Source: a virus
Lineage: Duplodnaviria > Heunggongvirae > Uroviricota > Caudoviricetes
Length of the DNA stretch: 38,669 bases
Direction: 5' to 3' (one strand)
Virus record (IMG/VR): IMGVR_UViG_2541047843_000002
Shown here: positions 3,019 through 11,526 of the stretch, piece by piece
How the letters are laid out: every line of letters starts with the position of its first letter
Numbering within the stretch: position 1 is the stretch's first letter
Program-made: the position numbers and the translations under genes
Notes under the pieces: model-generated
Database searches by the model: none
What the model saw: only the letters and a program-made list of their open reading frames with translations
What the model was told of the DNA's origin: nothing

Positions 3019-3689
3019 TGCTCTCCAAATACAAAACCAATTTCAGCCAGTGCTTCGTCCATTTTTTCGATGAACTCCGGCACCATCTCGTCAAAACTCG
3101 CCATGTACTTTTCATCCCGCTCAACCACGACATAATGCAGGCCTTCACGCTTCATTCGTGGGTCATAGTTGGCAAAGTACCAGGCATCTTTTCGTGTCAC
3201 CCACATGCTGTACTGCACCTGGGCCATGTAAGCCGACTTTATGGCCTCGAAACCACCGAGCCGGAACTTCATGAAATCCCGGGAGGTAAACGGGCATTTC
3301 AGCTCAAGGCCATTGCCGTCACTGCATAAACCATCGGGAGAGCAGGCGGTGCGCATACTTTCGTCGCGATAGATGATCGGGGATTCAGTAACATTCACGC
3401 CGGAAGTGAATTCAAACAGGGTTCTGGCGTCGTTCTCGTACTGTTTTCCCCACGCCAGCGCCTTAGCATTAACTTCCGGAGCCACACCGGTGCAAACCTC
3501 AGCCAGCAGGGTGTGGAAGTAGGACATTTTCATGTCAGGCCACTTCTTTCCTGAGCGGGGCTTTGCTATCACGTTGTGAACTTCTGAAGCGGTGATGACG
3601 CCGAGCCGTAATTTGTGCCATGCATCATCCCCCTGTTCGACAGCTCTCACGTCGATCCCGGTACGCTGCAGGATAATGTCCGGTGTCAT
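3009..3689 (-). CDS. exo: lambda exonuclease (Red alpha)
   Basis: 226-aa protein essentially identical to lambda Exo as recalled ([43 protein letters not shown]...). Confidence 0.95.
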
Positions 3690-4471
3690 GCTGCCACCTT
3701 CTGCTCAGTGGCTTTCTGTTTCAGGAATCCAAGAGCTTTCACTGCTTCGGCCTGTGTCAGTTCTGACGATGCGCGAATGTCGCGGCGAAATATCTGGGAA
3801 CAGAGCGGCAATAAGTCGTCATCCCATGTTTTGTCCAGGGCAATCAGCAGAGTGTTAATCTCCTGCATGGTTTCATCGTTAACCGGAGTGATGTCGCGTT
3901 CCGGCTGACGTTCTGCAGTGTATGCGGTATTTTCGACAATGCGCTCGGCTTCATCCTTGTCATAGATACCAGCAAATCCGAAGGCCAGACGGGCACACTG
4001 AATCATGGCTTTATGCCGTAACATCCGTTTGGGATGCGACTGCCACGGCCCCGTGATTTCTCTGCCTTCGCGGGTTTTGAATGGTTCGCGGCGGCATTCA
4101 TCCATCCACTCGGTAACGCAGATCGGATGATTGCGGTCTTTGCGGTAAATCCGGCATGTACATGATTCATTGTCCTGCTCAAAGTCCATACCATCAAACT
4201 GCTGGTTTTCATTGATGATGCGGGACCAGCCATCAACGCCCACCACCGGAACAATGCCGTTCTGCTTATCAGGGAAGGCGTAAATTTCTTTCGTCCACGG
4301 ATTAAGGCCGTACTGGTTGGCGACGATCAACAATGCGATGAACTGCGCATCGCTGGCATCACCTTTAAATGCCGTCTGGCGAAGAGTGGTGATCAGTTCC
4401 TGTGGGTCGACAGAATCCATGCCGACACGTTCAGCCAGCTTCCCTGCCAGCGTTGCGAGTGCTGTACTCAT
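3686..4471 (-). CDS. bet: Red beta single-strand annealing protein
   Basis: 261-aa protein matching lambda Bet; 4-nt overlap with exo. Confidence 0.95.
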
Positions 4472-4476
4472 CCGTT

Positions 4477-4773
4477 TTATACCTCTGAATCAATATCAGC
4501 CTGATGGTGAGCAATGGTTTCAACTATGTACCGGATGTGTTCTGCCATGCGCTCCTGAAACTCAACATCGTCATCAAACGCACGGGTAATGGCTTTTTTG
4601 CTGGCCCCGTGGCGTTGTAAATGATCGATGCATAGCGATTCAAACAGGTGCTGGGGCAGGCCTTTTTCCATGTCGTCTGCCAGTTCTGCCTCTTTCTCTT
4701 CACGGGCGATCTGCTGGTAGTGACGCGCCCAGCTCTGAGCCTCAAGACGATCCTGAATGTAATAAGCGTTCAT
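4477..4773 (-). CDS. gam: Gam, RecBCD inhibitor (98-aa short form)
   Basis: [21 protein letters not shown]...IDSEV matches lambda GamS. Confidence 0.95.
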
Positions 4774-7415: not shown

Positions 7416-7997
7416 ATGAACAACTCATGGTGGCAGGAACTAATGCATTTTTTCCTGCAAGGAATGACACTTAAACAGTTGATTCATATGCTAATCATCC
7501 TGATCATATTGATTATTGTTATGCCGGTAAGCGTAAAAGAATGGATAAACCTGCATAATCCAGAAATCCTTCCTCATTACTGGATGTATTACATCCTGTT
7601 GTTTTGCGTTAGCTATGTGCTTAACGGCGTTGTTAATTCCGCTTATCACGCTGTGACTGAAAGAATTGAGGTATTCGCTGCTCAGAAGCGCAAATCTAAA
7701 GAAGAAAAATATGTGCAAGATTTGTTTGATTCGTTAACTCTTGGAGAAAGAGCGTATTTGGCATTCGCTGTAGCCGCTAATAACCAGCTACAAACGGAAA
7801 AGGGCGCTCATGAATCAATTTCATTGCTCAAAAAAGGACTCCTCGTTCGAAGGCCTCCTGCTGTTGGATATCCTGATACCGACCGTTTCGTTATCCCTGA
7901 AAGCTATAGACATGAGTGCTACATTAGGTTTGCCGGGAAGGCAGACAGCCTTATGGATGAACTTATCGCTCAGGATAAGCATGGCAAAAACAAGTAA
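7416..7997 (+). CDS. sieB: SieB superinfection exclusion protein
   Basis: 193-aa protein with N-terminal hydrophobic segments, opposite in orientation to the leftward operon between ral and N as in lambda. Confidence 0.85.
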   Translation: MNNSWWQELMHFFLQGMTLKQLIHMLIILIILIIVMPVSVKEWINLHNPEILPHYWMYYILLFCVSYVLNGVVNSAYHAVTERIEVFAAQKRKSKEEKYVQDLFDSLTLGERAYLAFAVAANNQLQTEKGAHESISLLKKGLLVRRPPAVGYPDTDRFVIPESYRHECYIRFAGKADSLMDELIAQDKHGKNK

Positions 7998-8013
7998 TTA
8001 GCAAATGAATTTA

Positions 8014-8286
8014 TCATCTCGCCGTCAGTTGTTTTGATTTCCGGTAGCCTGCCGCGTAAAGAGCTACGTTCGGAAGACAAGTTGAACCTTCATATTTTCT
8101 GGTCAACGTTGTCAGAGTTATCACTTCTGCTCTCATTGCTGGTTTGAGCTTGCATTGCAAGACCACTCGTGAAGGGGTTGGCCTGTGTAGCTTGTCGGAG
8201 CTGATCGCCTCCTGACTTTGCAGATTTGCGCGACGAGCTCTACGGCGAGAAGCTGCGGTGCCTTTAAATTCTGTTTTTCTGGACAT
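8014..8286 (-). CDS. N: N-type transcription antiterminator (non-lambda N)
   Basis: Internal start MSRKTEFKGTAASRRRARRANLQ gives an arginine-rich motif N-terminus; GGGAGGAA RBS upstream; first gene downstream of pL/nutL; C-terminus recalls the N family of Stx phages H-19B/933W (from memory). Confidence 0.75.
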   Translation of the reverse strand: MSRKTEFKGTAASRRRARRANLQSQEAISSDKLHRPTPSRVVLQCKLKPAMRAEVITLTTLTRKYEGSTCLPNVALYAAGYRKSKQLTAR

Positions 8287-8385
8287 GGATTCCTCCCGAA
8301 TAAACTTTGGCGATGCAATCTCGAAGCTCCTCCTGAGACGGTTGCTTCGGCATTGCATCCCACAGCTTATGTGGTTGGGTGATCT

Positions 8386-8429
8386 GGCTTTTCAGCCACG
8401 TAGTCGAGAGTCGACGTTGTTTAAAGAGC
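8386..8429 (-). promoter_or_regulatory. nutL: boxA (GCTCTTTAAACAA) plus boxB hairpin (GGCT-GAAAA-AGCC) separated by a 23-nt spacer containing a small dyad
   Basis: Read on the minus strand in the leader between pL and N; same architecture and the same GAAAA pentaloop recur at nutR. Confidence 0.55.
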
Positions 8430-8475
8430 CTGCCAGTCTGTTCCATTTGGCTTCCAGCGTCCTGCTGACGGTTAA

Positions 8476-8504
8476 ATAGTACGATATGTACTTTACAAGA
8501 TCAA
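8476..8504 (-). promoter_or_regulatory. candidate pL promoter (-35 TTGATC, 17-nt spacer, -10 TACTAT) with overlapping palindromes (candidate OL operators)
   Basis: Minus-strand sigma70-like hexamers about 190 nt upstream of N; palindromes AGTACGATATGTACT (8478-8492) and TACAATTTGTTGTA (8505-8518) overlap the -10 and -35. Confidence 0.4.
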
Positions 8505-8697
8505 TACAATTTGTTGTAAGTTGGCGTGGTTTTTTATAACGCTTTGTATTTAATAGTGTTGTTTTTTAGCGTGGATGTATTGCCTCGGCGATGTAAGGAG
8601 AGATCAGAATTGCGTGGTTTAGTGGGTTGCATCTATTTATTTTTCAATAAATATAATTGGTTATGTGTTTTTAGGTGGGCGAACGTGAGGCAAAGAA

Positions 8698-8719
8698 AAC
8701 CCGGCGCTGAGGCCGGGTT
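8698..8719 (-). terminator. intrinsic terminator ending the cI operon (t-imm analogue)
   Basis: AACCCGGC / GCCGGGTT 8-bp stem with 6-nt loop, followed on the minus strand by TTCTTTG; sits 3 nt after the stop of the 250-aa gene. Confidence 0.5.
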
Positions 8720-8722
8720 GTA

Positions 8723-9475
8723 TTATGCTGCAAGTCTCTTAACCCAAGTCTCTCTTTTGGAGAATGGTAGAACTTGGCTTGATTCATGGAAGAGTAAGGA
8801 GAGTTGTTGCATTTGATCACCAATTGCTTCGCTGTCTATAACAACAAATCTGTTGTTATACTCCTCACTTGAAGCTTTAAGATCAATTAGTTTCCCAAGC
8901 AATGAGTAAGCACTATTCCAGCTTCCTCCGTGTTTCACGCTTGATGTAAAAACGTATTTAGGTATGTCGGTTTTTATTGTTACAGGGACGGTAATTTGAT
9001 GTCCACTCAAGCCATATACGTTTTCACGAAGAGAAAGTGCGTCTCTAAGCTCTGTGTGATATAGATAATCAATAACCATACTTTCAAACTTTTCAGCTTG
9101 AACTGGCTGATACCAGTCTAACGACAAAGTTGATGCGAGTATACCAGCTCTAATTATGTTCGATGTAATCGCACCGACATCCTTTTCTGTTGCCCAAGCA
9201 ATGATTTCTCCTCGAGCATTGAGTTCTGCGCCTTCTTTAAGCAGTAATTGTCGTATCTCATCAAGTCGTTTTTTGGTAAGCGAGATCCCTCTTGCCTCCA
9301 TATTCATTAAGGCATCGCATCTGTCACTAACTAAATACCTACCATTGACTTCACGGATAAAGGCACCGACATGCTCTCCATCATCACAGTAAGTGAATGG
9401 ACTGATAATTCTCAAGGTCTTGCCTATTGGATGGCATTCGAAACCTAGTTGTGAGATCACTGTTGAGCACATCAT
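8723..9475 (-). CDS. hypothetical protein, 250 aa; second gene of the cI-linked accessory operon (candidate defence/exclusion component)
   Basis: ORF whose ATG overlaps the stop of the upstream gene (ATGA); terminator immediately downstream; no domain recognised; no obvious transmembrane segment. Confidence 0.65.
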   Translation of the reverse strand: MMCSTVISQLGFECHPIGKTLRIISPFTYCDDGEHVGAFIREVNGRYLVSDRCDALMNMEARGISLTKKRLDEIRQLLLKEGAELNARGEIIAWATEKDVGAITSNIIRAGILASTLSLDWYQPVQAEKFESMVIDYLYHTELRDALSLRENVYGLSGHQITVPVTIKTDIPKYVFTSSVKHGGSWNSAYSLLGKLIDLKASSEEYNNRFVVIDSEAIGDQMQQLSLLFHESSQVLPFSKRETWVKRLAA

Positions 9476-10029
9476 ATTCCAAACCCCATTTGCCCCGACT
9501 CATCTTCAAGCGGTAAAGGTATTCTCCCAGAGTAAGTTATGTTCAGATGTTTACAGAAGTAATTCCAATACCCTACCAGGTCATCTGGGTTTATGTCATC
9601 TTCGATTGGAAACGCTATTCTATCACTATAGTATCCAGCTTCTTCATAGTATACATGGTAGTGAGCACCGTAAATGATATCTTGGTACTTCGGATGATCG
9701 ACCTTGTAACTATTCGTGTGTTTGTCAAAGTGATAGGTATCTACCGCGAAAACCCTCTTGTTATGATAGAAAGCAATAATATTTATTTTAGGGTAAGAAA
9801 TCGGGTCATCAGGTTCTGAATCCTGATCTGGTTTCCATTTCAGTTCAAACTTTAGCCCTTGTATAGGTATACAATCCTCATCCAAGGGGATGATATGGGC
9901 TTGTAGCCACATATCAGAGCGACTTGGTTTCTGTTTCCATTTAACGCCAGAAAAGTTAACTATTTTTTTACAATAAAGTACTTTATCAACTTCTACTTGG
10001 CTTGGCTGATAATCATCTATTTTTGCCAA
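9472..10029 (-). CDS. hypothetical protein, 185 aa; first gene of the cI-linked accessory operon (candidate defence/exclusion component)
   Basis: ORF begins 39 nt after the cI stop; only upstream in-frame start is TTG at 10029 (first ATG is codon 40 at 9912); Tyr/Asp/His-rich; no domain recognised. Confidence 0.6.
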   Translation of the reverse strand: MAKIDDYQPSQVEVDKVLYCKKIVNFSGVKWKQKPSRSDMWLQAHIIPLDEDCIPIQGLKFELKWKPDQDSEPDDPISYPKINIIAFYHNKRVFAVDTYHFDKHTNSYKVDHPKYQDIIYGAHYHVYYEEAGYYSDRIAFPIEDDINPDDLVGYWNYFCKHLNITYSGRIPLPLEDESGQMGFGI

Positions 10030-10068
10030 TGTTTACCGCCCTGTAAATTGTAGATAAAAGTGGTTTCA

Positions 10069-10728
10069 TCACCCAAACGTCTCTTCAGGCCATTGGCTGG
10101 CGATAACTTTCCCCACAACGGAACAACTCTCATTGCATGGGATCATTGGGTATTGTGGGTTTAGTGGCTGTAGAAACACCTGACCGCTATCCCTGATCAG
10201 TTTCTTGAAGGTAAATTCATCACCACCAAGTCTGGCTATGCAGAAATCGCCGGGCTCAACAGCTTGCTCAGGGTCAACCAGAATTAACATCCCGTCAGGA
10301 AAGCTGGGTTTGGAACCTGTTGGTGCGGTCATTGAGTTACCTTCAACCTCAAGCCAGAATGCAGAGTCACTGGCTTTTTTGGTTGTGCTTACCAATCTCT
10401 CCGCATCGCCTTTGGTAAAGGTTCTGAGTTCTGGAGAGAACATCCCAGCCTGAACATGAGAAAAAACAGGGTACTCATATTGTTTTTTAACTGGGGCCGA
10501 TGAGTATTCGCCAACAGGTGAAAATGTCCCGTCGTGGTTGAATGATATGTTATCAATACCAAGGTATTTAAACACCACACCAATATCACTAAGAGATGGA
10601 TGACGAGATCCGCGCAACCAGTGTCCAATCCCACCCTGCGTCATACCTAGCTCTTCGGCTAACTTCTCTTGAGTTATGCCGAGCTCTTTCATTCTGGATC
10701 TAGCCAGTTCATACCATTTCATTTTCAT
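10069..10728 (-). CDS. cI: CI-type prophage repressor (HTH plus LexA-like S24 peptidase domain)
   Basis: N-terminal XRE-type HTH ([25 protein letters not shown]) and C-terminal autocleavage domain with Ala-Gly site and Ser...Lys dyad (EVEGNSM ... FTFKKL); divergent from cro; start at internal ATG with AAGGA RBS. Confidence 0.85.
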
Positions 10729-10840
10729 GTCCTTATTATTACGCTCTGTACTGGAACCATCCATGCACAATGTGTATTTTTACTTGTATTCGCAAAGTAC
10801 ATATTGTATTTTTTTTATTCGTGTTTACTATGGAGGGCAT
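10729..10840. promoter_or_regulatory. OR-like divergent promoter/operator region between cI and cro
   Basis: AT-rich 112-bp intergenic region between divergent repressor genes; contains dyads (e.g. TACTT-N9-AAGTA and AAGTACATATTGTA) related to those at the candidate pL. Confidence 0.5.
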
Positions 10841-11056
10841 ATGAGCAACCTACGAAAATATCGAGAGTCACTGAATATCTCTCAAACAACACTTGCTAAG
10901 GCAGTTGGATGCACACAGGGAGCTATCGGACATTGGGAATCTGGTCGTCGCTTCCCAGACCTTAAAACATGCCGTGCTCTTGTTGCGTGCCTAAACAAGT
11001 TAGGCGCAAAAGTCAGTCTTGATGACGTGTTCCCGCCGGAACACAAAGCCGCTTAA
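10841..11056 (+). CDS. cro: Cro-like HTH regulator
   Basis: 71-aa XRE-type HTH protein (ISQTTLAKAVGCTQGAIGHWESG) divergent from cI with GGAGGG RBS; not lambda Cro. Confidence 0.8.
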   Translation: MSNLRKYRESLNISQTTLAKAVGCTQGAIGHWESGRRFPDLKTCRALVACLNKLGAKVSLDDVFPPEHKAA

Positions 11057-11066
11057 TAAGCGGATC

Positions 11067-11112
11067 CGCTCTTTGTAACAACGGACATTCGTCCTACGTC
11101 GCTGAAAAGCGA
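11067..11112 (+). promoter_or_regulatory. nutR: boxA (CGCTCTTTGTAACAA) plus boxB hairpin (TCGCT-GAAAA-AGCGA)
   Basis: Lies between cro and cII; same boxA, 23-nt spacer, GAAAA-loop boxB layout as nutL; a 12-bp perfect palindrome AGCGGATCCGCT directly follows the cro stop. Confidence 0.55.
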
Positions 11113-11197
11113 GTTCCAAGATATCTGACCAACTAAGGCCATATGCGTTTCCACGCATACCTTTCAACTAACTATTCACTATTGGAAATCTTAAGAA

Positions 11198-11494
11198 ATG
11201 GAAAGAACAAGTTACAGCAAACTATCACAGCGTGACGTTGATCGCGCAGAAACAGATTTACTTATCAATCTGTCAGCTATTACCCAGCGCGGTCTGGCAA
11301 AGATGATTGGCTGTCATGAATCGAAGATAAGCAGAACGGACTGGAGATTTATTGCTTCGGTCTTGTGTGCTTTCGGAATGGCATCAGACATCAGTCCGAT
11401 TAGCAGGGCTTTTAAGTATGCGCTTGATGGACTCACCAATAAAAAACGCCCGGCGGCAACCGAGCGTTCTGAACAAATCCAGATGGAATTCTGA
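11198..11494 (+). CDS. cII: CII-like lysogeny activator (mosaic: lambda-type C-terminus)
   Basis: 98 aa; C-terminal TNKKRPAATERSEQIQMEF matches lambda CII as recalled, N-terminal portion differs. Confidence 0.8.
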   Translation: MERTSYSKLSQRDVDRAETDLLINLSAITQRGLAKMIGCHESKISRTDWRFIASVLCAFGMASDISPISRAFKYALDGLTNKKRPAATERSEQIQMEF

Positions 11495-11526
11495 GGTCAT
11501 TACTGGATCAATCCACAGGAGTCATT

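Follow-up and report, generated by a model that had tools for sequence, protein, structure and literature searches.

A two-gene cassette in the rexAB slot of a lambdoid prophage as a candidate lysogen-expressed anti-phage module

Two adjacent minus-strand genes, here called A (9472..10029, 185 aa, TTG start) and B (8723..9475, 250 aa), were studied in the IMG/VR virus record IMGVR_UViG_2541047843_000002 (Caudoviricetes), the whole 38,669-nucleotide stretch of which is referred to below as the window. The pair was found to form a mobile accessory cassette of two genes, which occupies the cI-N hotspot of lambdoid prophages in place of the lambda genes rexA and rexB. Because of the position in this slot, the expression in the lysogen that is expected there and a distant match to the candidate defence family PDC-M24, we regard A and B, with modest confidence, as probably forming a lysogen-expressed, cytoplasmic two-protein anti-phage module that acts by superinfection exclusion or abortive infection and represents a divergent branch of PDC-M24. 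A defence role is plausible, and the slot and the kinship with PDC-M24 are two independent, circumstantial lines of support for it.

The boundaries of the cassette were defined by comparison with lambda. According to megablast, window positions 8600-8719 were 90.8% identical to lambda 35710-35826, and homology to lambda stopped at the stop codon of rexB, the end of which lies at 35825. On the other side, the DNA for the C-terminal domain of the cI-type repressor gene (10069..10764, minus strand) was about 95% identical to that of lambda up to the TGA stop codon and unrelated from 1-2 nt beyond it. Since lambda homology ended at the cI stop codon and resumed at t_imm, it was concluded that a cassette of about 1.35 kb replaces rexA-rexB exactly, with the cI stop codon and t_imm as its junctions. 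The left-hand junction is marked by an intrinsic terminator (8690..8719, minus strand), which is a homologue of lambda t_imm and is common to the window and lambda, and the right-hand junction lies in the 39-nt spacer between cI and A (10030..10068, minus strand), which was read directly. When the window, lambda and phage PhiR11_1 were aligned together, the sequences were near-identical across the terminator hairpin and divergent directly past the final stop codon of the cargo.

Residues about 95-232 of the window cI were identical to lambda cI, and the N-terminal DNA-binding domain was unlike that of lambda; judged from its sequence, this cI is a hybrid repressor. The A-B cassette was also observed behind authentic lambda cI in three IMG/VR loci (L037, L040 and L096). 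The occurrence of the cassette behind both the hybrid and the authentic lambda cI suggests that recombination in the common sequences, the cI C-domain and t_imm, is its means of transfer. The sieB-N ... cI-cro-cII backbone and the terminator recur in PhiR11_1, in which the cI-N slot is occupied by a different gene pair (L097, PV340547.1, 3620-5000), consisting of two hypothetical genes of 163 aa and 283 aa. Such a difference in cargo agrees with published work, in which the cI-N region, with its highly transcribed lysogenic promoter, is described as a mosaic hotspot housing rexAB and bstA (PMC8585504). No PADLOC model was matched by either protein of the PhiR11_1 slot, which therefore adds no support to the idea that the slot always holds a known defence system. 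Additional genes were also observed between the repressor and A. A DUF3024 gene of 113 aa was located there in an Izhakiella locus (L003, 5044-5385) and in two other loci (L055 and L057, 3052-3393), and a hydrophobic ORF of 114 aa (ORF, open reading frame) was located there in Thorsellia (L009, 5010-5354). Therefore, the slot can hold three cargo genes.

The first gene of the presumed operon is cI, the product of which matched Peptidase_S24 (1e-28) and HTH_3 (2e-10) of Pfam; at the equivalent coordinates of E. coli Nissle 1917, RefSeq labels it a LexA family protein. The cI stop codon (TGA, 10069-10071) is followed after the 39-nt gap by the TTG codon of A at 10029, and a terminator scan gave no hit in this gap. 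The region was no richer in promoter-like sites than shuffled sequence, so no internal promoter is claimed, and no Rfam family was matched in 7900-11200. Since the gap lacks a terminator and promoter-like sites are no commoner than in shuffled sequence, co-transcription of A and B with cI is the simplest reading of this region. The same scan located, a few bases past B, an 8-bp stem (8719..8698) with 6 G-C pairs, followed by UUUUCUUU, and its folding energy was -17 kcal/mol (z = -3.4 versus shuffles). This terminator would close the inferred cI-A-B transcript, and in the lysogen transcription most likely runs from the repressor gene through A and B to this shared t_imm terminator. The G+C content was 38.2% for A, 40.6% for B and 39.6% for the two together, compared with 46.4% for cI, 49.6% for N and 50.3% for the whole window. 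A first-pass annotation of this DNA, made from the letters alone, had already described two minus-strand genes in the rexAB slot with about 40% G+C (lower than in cI and N), an ATGA stop/start overlap, an A start 39 nt past cI at TTG or codon 40 and a terminator after the pair; the ORF listing, the alignment of both lambda junctions and the readings given here agreed with it on all of these points.

The translation starts of the pair were examined in related loci. The only other in-frame start for A is Met40. All A homologues begin with M-A-K-x-D-D-Y at the codon equivalent to the TTG of the window, and the TTG was therefore taken as the real start of A. In the cI-A spacer, a purine-rich Shine-Dalgarno-like stretch, cAGGGCGGtaaaca, is located 5' of the TTG, and a 39-nt gap between cI and A recurs in 24 IMG/VR loci. 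Among ten related loci, A starts with GTG in seven and with ATG in three, while B starts with ATG in nine, and the 4-nt ATGA overlap is present in seven. In the window, the stop codon of A and the start codon of B overlap as ATGA (9472..9475, minus strand), as was read from the sequence, which is consistent with translational coupling. The weak, coupled non-ATG start of A seems to be conserved and to limit or fix the ratio of A to B.

The relation of the pair to known defence systems was studied with the PADLOC models. B matched PDC-M24B with an E value of 4.7e-10 over nearly its full length (residues 2-249 versus model positions 4-254 of 256), and distant B-type proteins also matched this model at full length, with E values from 3.5e-5 to 1.8e-15. 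A-type proteins matched the PDC-M24A models alone, and did so weakly: among 15 divergent A members, three sub-models were matched by 3, 3 and 1 members, and two of four distant A members matched (2e-4 and 1e-3), one of them nearly over its full length. The 145 'phage defence candidates' (PDCs) were derived from cassettes inside BREX, DISARM and type I restriction-modification (R-M) loci (Payne et al. 2024, 10.1101/2024.01.29.577857). PDC-M24 corresponds to cassette CAS_00098 (FAM_00129>>FAM_00065), with 153 occurrences. Like PDC-M24, the pair consists of two adjacent same-strand genes in the order A then B, with a full-length match for B. In contrast, A matches only weakly and over part of its length (E 5e-4 to 1e-3), so that PADLOC would probably not call a system. 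The A-B clade is also linked to operons of prophage repressors, in contrast to the BREX, DISARM and type I R-M loci in which the cassettes that define PDCs are embedded. On these matches, the pair appears to be a branch of the candidate family PDC-M24 that has diverged and is carried by prophages.

The pair was also compared with the defence genes known from the same slot. Like lambda RexA-RexB, it lies between cI and t_imm, in the same slot to the nucleotide, as two genes on the repressor strand with expected cI co-transcription in the lysogen. However, A and B have no sequence similarity to RexA-RexB, and the PADLOC scan gave PDC-M24 models only, with no match to a Rex model. RexB is a polytopic membrane protein (Owen 2021), whereas neither a signal peptide nor a membrane segment was detected in A or B by a Kyte-Doolittle scan, in which the maximum 19-residue score was 0.45 for A, 1.19 for B and 3.03 for the SieB control. 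Because the pair lacks a membrane subunit, its mechanism must be cytoplasmic and not a RexB-like channel depolarisation. BstA, a defence protein of the Salmonella prophage BTP1, is likewise encoded directly downstream of cI; its gene has a terminator of its own and is highly expressed in the lysogen (PMC8585504). However, BstA is a single protein, and neither A nor B matched the BstA model of PADLOC.

Protein B is composed of two domains. The AlphaFold2 (AF2) model of B was globular, with a predicted local distance difference test (pLDDT) score of 84. The N-terminal domain (about residues 1-120) belongs to DUF1828 and has a type III secretion chaperone-like fold; the Pfam DUF1828 model was matched over residues 26-110 with 33.5 bits (cut-off 22), and all 29 homologues matched it as well. 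To our knowledge, no function has been described for the DUF1828 family. Proteins of this family often combine DUF1828 with DUF1829, whereas no DUF1829 match was obtained for B or its homologues. Conserved positions of the N-terminal domain are C3, G11, C14, S25, P26, D32-G33-E34, D51, L56, R70 and G89-E90. The C-terminal domain (about residues 129-250) has the alpha/beta core of a restriction-endonuclease-like fold in the AF2 model, and positions at the beta-2 start and within beta-3 carry GxSG(H159) and K173/T177. In an alignment reaching 31% identity, the invariant residues of this domain were G155, S157, G158, P164, T177, G194 and D198. The domain thus differs from the PD-(D/E)xK nucleases (Can2/Card1, PspGI, NgoMIV), the motif of which is absent, GxSG(H), T177 and D198 being conserved instead; a non-canonical active site may be present.

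Protein A is soluble and beta-rich, and its AF2 model was globular and confident; no fold match was found in the PDB or BFVD. Searches of all PDB chains with A and B, by single sequences and by profiles, gave no real homologue. An apparent hit of A, in which residues about 76-115 were aligned to SAKe6AC-LB, a designed Kelch propeller with six blades (PDB 8pjr; E 4e-6 by sequence, 2.9e-12 by profile), was rejected as a repeat artefact that sums weak beta-hairpin matches to six identical blades without any individually significant stretch. An alignment of 15 A sequences, reaching down to 21% identity, contained ten invariant positions. The invariant polar positions are K22, R92, D97, N106, H123 and H125, H104 is nearly invariant, and G121 is invariant as well. 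Because H104 and H123-x-H125 lie on beta-strands close to each other in sequence, a putative three-histidine metal site in A is suggested. Residues 104-164 of A, which contain the H-x-N and H-x-H motifs, align to the C-terminal part of the Pfam model DUF6978, and this model was matched weakly by 5 of the 15 divergent A members (best E 1e-4); however, all scores were under the gathering cut-off, the N-terminal half of A was left unmatched, and DUF6978 is itself uncharacterised. Near the C-terminus, the SGQ motif (E-x-x-SGQ tail) is largely conserved over the 15 divergent sequences. The tail is invariant in the close family, yet its pLDDT is below 50, so that it is predicted to be disordered; such a conserved and disordered tail would be the usual signature of a partner-binding peptide. 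PHROGs 2017 and 1960, which have no known function, were matched by the pair, and NCBIfam gave nothing for A or B.

These results change part of the initial view of the two proteins. The first-pass annotation had stated that they are unlike RexA and RexB and have no membrane segment, and this was borne out. Three features had been overlooked, namely a conserved His/Asp cluster in A, the nuclease-like fold of the C-terminal domain of B and the distant PDC-M24 match. Its view that the pair could be assigned to no described defence family has to be amended, since B belongs to DUF1828 and the pair appears to be related, at some distance, to the candidate family PDC-M24.

A possible, though doubtful, mechanism can be proposed from these features, in which the chaperone-like domain of B holds the tail of A until a phage cue releases an effector, either the His cluster of A or the nuclease-like domain of B. 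A and B would be made in coupled, low amounts, owing to the non-ATG start of A and the ATGA overlap, and would form a complex in which the DUF1828 domain of B holds the conserved, disordered C-terminal tail of A. An infecting phage protein or phage DNA would disturb this complex and release the effector, which would be the Asp/His/Asn/His-x-His site of A (a putative metal centre) or the endonuclease-like domain of B. The released activity would then attack nucleic acid or another essential target and block phage growth. In a more specific form of this idea, to which we likewise attach low confidence, A would be the effector of a new anti-phage system, having a hitherto unseen fold with a His-rich metal centre, and B would be the sensor and keeper that holds the tail of A.

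Several points weigh against a defence role of A and B or against its details. The match of A to PDC-M24A covered residues 104-163 only (E 4.8e-4), and the match of A to DUF6978 reached 22 bits at a cut-off of 29.6; both are below the usual thresholds. The PDCs were described as untested by their own authors (Payne et al. 2024, bioRxiv 10.1101/2024.01.29.577857), and no functional study was found in the literature on DUF1828, DUF6978, PDC-M24, the RefSeq accessions or lambdoid hotspots. The canonical D...(D/E)xK motif was not conserved in the C-terminal domain of B in the alignment reaching 31% identity, and nuclease activity of B is therefore doubtful. H159, although nearly invariant, varies in distant members, as does K173, and the putative metal site of A rests on sequence and secondary structure. 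The loci were retrieved with patterns derived from this clade, so that the linkage to repressors may fail for the wider family, and one distant locus (L011) has no obvious repressor.

The sole published phage-resistance data for the Nissle prophage also weigh on this side, since they concern cII. It was reported that the 'phage repressor (pr)' of Nissle 1917 prophage 3, carried in pUC19, cut the plating of lambda and of Shiga toxin (Stx) phages about 200-fold (Bury 2018). The primers of the 410-bp clone match window positions 11152-11170 and 11501-11519 exactly and flank a cII-like gene (11198..11494, plus strand), which encodes a homologue of the CII-family activators. Therefore, the cloned gene was the CII-family homologue and not cI, and the report was rejected as evidence on A and B. 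The phenotype would be accounted for if overproduced CII drove the incoming phage into lysogeny.

The pairing of the two genes was studied in homologous loci. A was directly followed by B, with a 4-nt overlap, in all 80 IMG/VR loci, and A was directly followed by B in all eight genome loci (Yersinia, Providencia, Xenorhabdus, Pantoea, Thorsellia and Izhakiella). The pairing was also present in loci with A members that are only 21-28% identical and in a Pseudomonas D3-like phage, in which the A-like ORF is unannotated. In Pseudomonas phage VB_PaD_phPA-G (L016, PP083311.1), an unannotated A-family ORF (3483-4004) was observed downstream of a CI-like repressor; it has the MAK start, the D..H.N and H.H motifs and a GQMGF tail, and it overlaps an annotated hypothetical B-like gene (4001-4756) by 4 nt. 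An obligate, strictly co-inherited pair that is coupled by a 4-nt overlap, with a nuclease-like fold in one partner, would also suit a toxin-antitoxin (TA)-like addiction or stabilisation module without a primary anti-phage role. This explanation is given a small chance. Proteins of 185 and 250 aa are large for a type II pair, no DNA-binding antitoxin domain was present, and no TA family was matched by A or B in Pfam, NCBIfam or PADLOC. Moreover, a search of 72,556 plasmids, on which addiction modules are frequent, gave no B homologue, and the pair probably depends on the repressor operon and not on its own autoregulated promoter. The two readings also overlap, because many TA systems are defence systems.

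The linkage of the pair to repressors was then considered. It had been asked at the outset whether homologues always occur as a pair and always next to repressor genes; the pairing was without exception, and the linkage was nearly so. The nearest upstream same-strand ORF encoded a helix-turn-helix (HTH) or S24 repressor in 46 of 48 distinct cases, and the spacer between the repressor and A was usually shorter than 160 nt. HTH_3 was present in 43 of the 48 upstream ORFs and Peptidase_S24 in 42, and a few were short CI-type HTH proteins. The remaining two were the DUF3024 insert, for which cI is expected further upstream, as in the Izhakiella locus L003. At 60% identity, the upstream repressors formed 22 clusters, lambda cI included, with pairwise identity down to 9-20%. 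Because the upstream repressors span 22 clusters, the shared feature is the expression context, and the pair is tied to the repressor operon and not to a particular repressor.

These data bear on the possibility that A and B are lysogeny-control accessories that modulate repressor stability, SOS induction or the lysis-lysogeny decision of their own phage. The almost invariable position beside RecA-cleavable S24-type repressors, always inside the immunity region, would favour such a role, for which we see only a slender chance. The partner repressors are too diverse for a specific protein-protein partnership to be likely, and some of them have an HTH domain without S24. Furthermore, phages with the same backbone exist without the pair (PhiR11_1 and lambda), and BREX, DISARM and R-M loci, which are not prophage immunity regions, contain relatives of the family.

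The distribution of the pair was determined in genomes and phages. The 1.5-kb A-B segment was present at no less than 99% identity in 239 of 5426 complete E. coli genomes (about 4%), including Nissle 1917, the type strain ATCC 11775, NU14, MS7163 and ExPEC XM. In Nissle 1917, the prophage is located at icd, and the pair corresponds to WP_001062368.1 and WP_000968518.1. Among 50,697 phage records, seven carried the segment, representing five distinct phages: ev017, ev207, PhiR57_1, PhiR63_2 and Stx1_121427. Both protein families are small: the B family comprised 47 clusters and the A family 21 clusters, and a scan of 1.84 billion representatives with a hidden Markov model profile of A gave only 20 proteins at E<=1e-3. 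Phages or prophages of Yersinia, Xenorhabdus, Providencia, Thorsellia, Aeromonas and Pseudomonas carry members of the family as well. An enterobacterial A/B junction with 82% identity to B was observed on a 518-bp contig with 43% G+C in an Actinomadura rugatobispora assembly (L010, NZ_JBHSON010000334.1); it is almost certainly contamination in this actinomycete assembly.

Carriage by extraintestinal pathogenic and probiotic E. coli (Nissle 1917, NU14, MS7163 and ExPEC XM), together with the low G+C content that is typical of morons, would fit a host-fitness moron that is unrelated to phages, expressed in the lysogen like bor or lom and involved in stress tolerance, colonisation or virulence. 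The chance of this is considered similarly slender. A and B are cytoplasmic, without a signal peptide or membrane segment, the hosts from Yersinia to Pseudomonas differ greatly in lifestyle, and the sole family-level signal is the match to a defence candidate.

Selection on the pair was assessed by codon-position comparisons with homologues at 53-82% protein identity. Second codon positions were 81-94% identical for homologues with B identity of at least 65% and 75-76% identical in the two most distant pairs. In the same comparisons, third positions were 32-48% identical, which is near saturation, and dS (synonymous divergence, NG86) was saturated. A diverged faster than B in every comparison. 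Because second positions were conserved while third positions were near saturation, A and B are to be regarded, on this codon pattern, as real coding genes under strong purifying selection, and the antisense ORFs of 78-96 aa in the region are by-products of the coding strand. The TTG start of A, the low G+C content and the several overlapping antisense ORFs could be taken as signs of chance ORFs in AT-rich DNA or of decaying pseudogenes, the probability of which is negligible in view of this codon pattern, full-length homologues down to 21-30% identity with conserved motifs, two confident AF2 models and a sequence shared at 100% identity by many genomes and by functional phages.

It was also observed that a SieB superinfection-exclusion gene lies on the plus strand at 7416-7997, just past N (Pfam SieB 2.5e-22, PHROG 1301). 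Therefore, a second exclusion-type gene is located near A and B in the immunity-left region.

The lambda genes rexAB are the oldest known abortive-infection system. A cassette that replaces them, is associated with at least 22 repressor types and extends from E. coli phages to Pseudomonas phages is a well-defined candidate for a new defence mechanism, and the pair combines one protein of no known fold with one that has an unusual domain pair. If A is indeed the effector of such a system and B its keeper, lambdoid phages would have swapped a mechanistically new cytoplasmic defence into the rexAB slot. As the hotspot is already known and candidate systems are plentiful, the finding will be no surprise to specialists, but the pair is still a clean and widespread target. 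Its carriers are medically relevant, since they include the probiotic Nissle 1917, the E. coli type strain, uropathogenic and other extraintestinal lineages and a Stx1a phage. If the module is active, the host range in phage therapy and the uptake of Stx phages would be affected.

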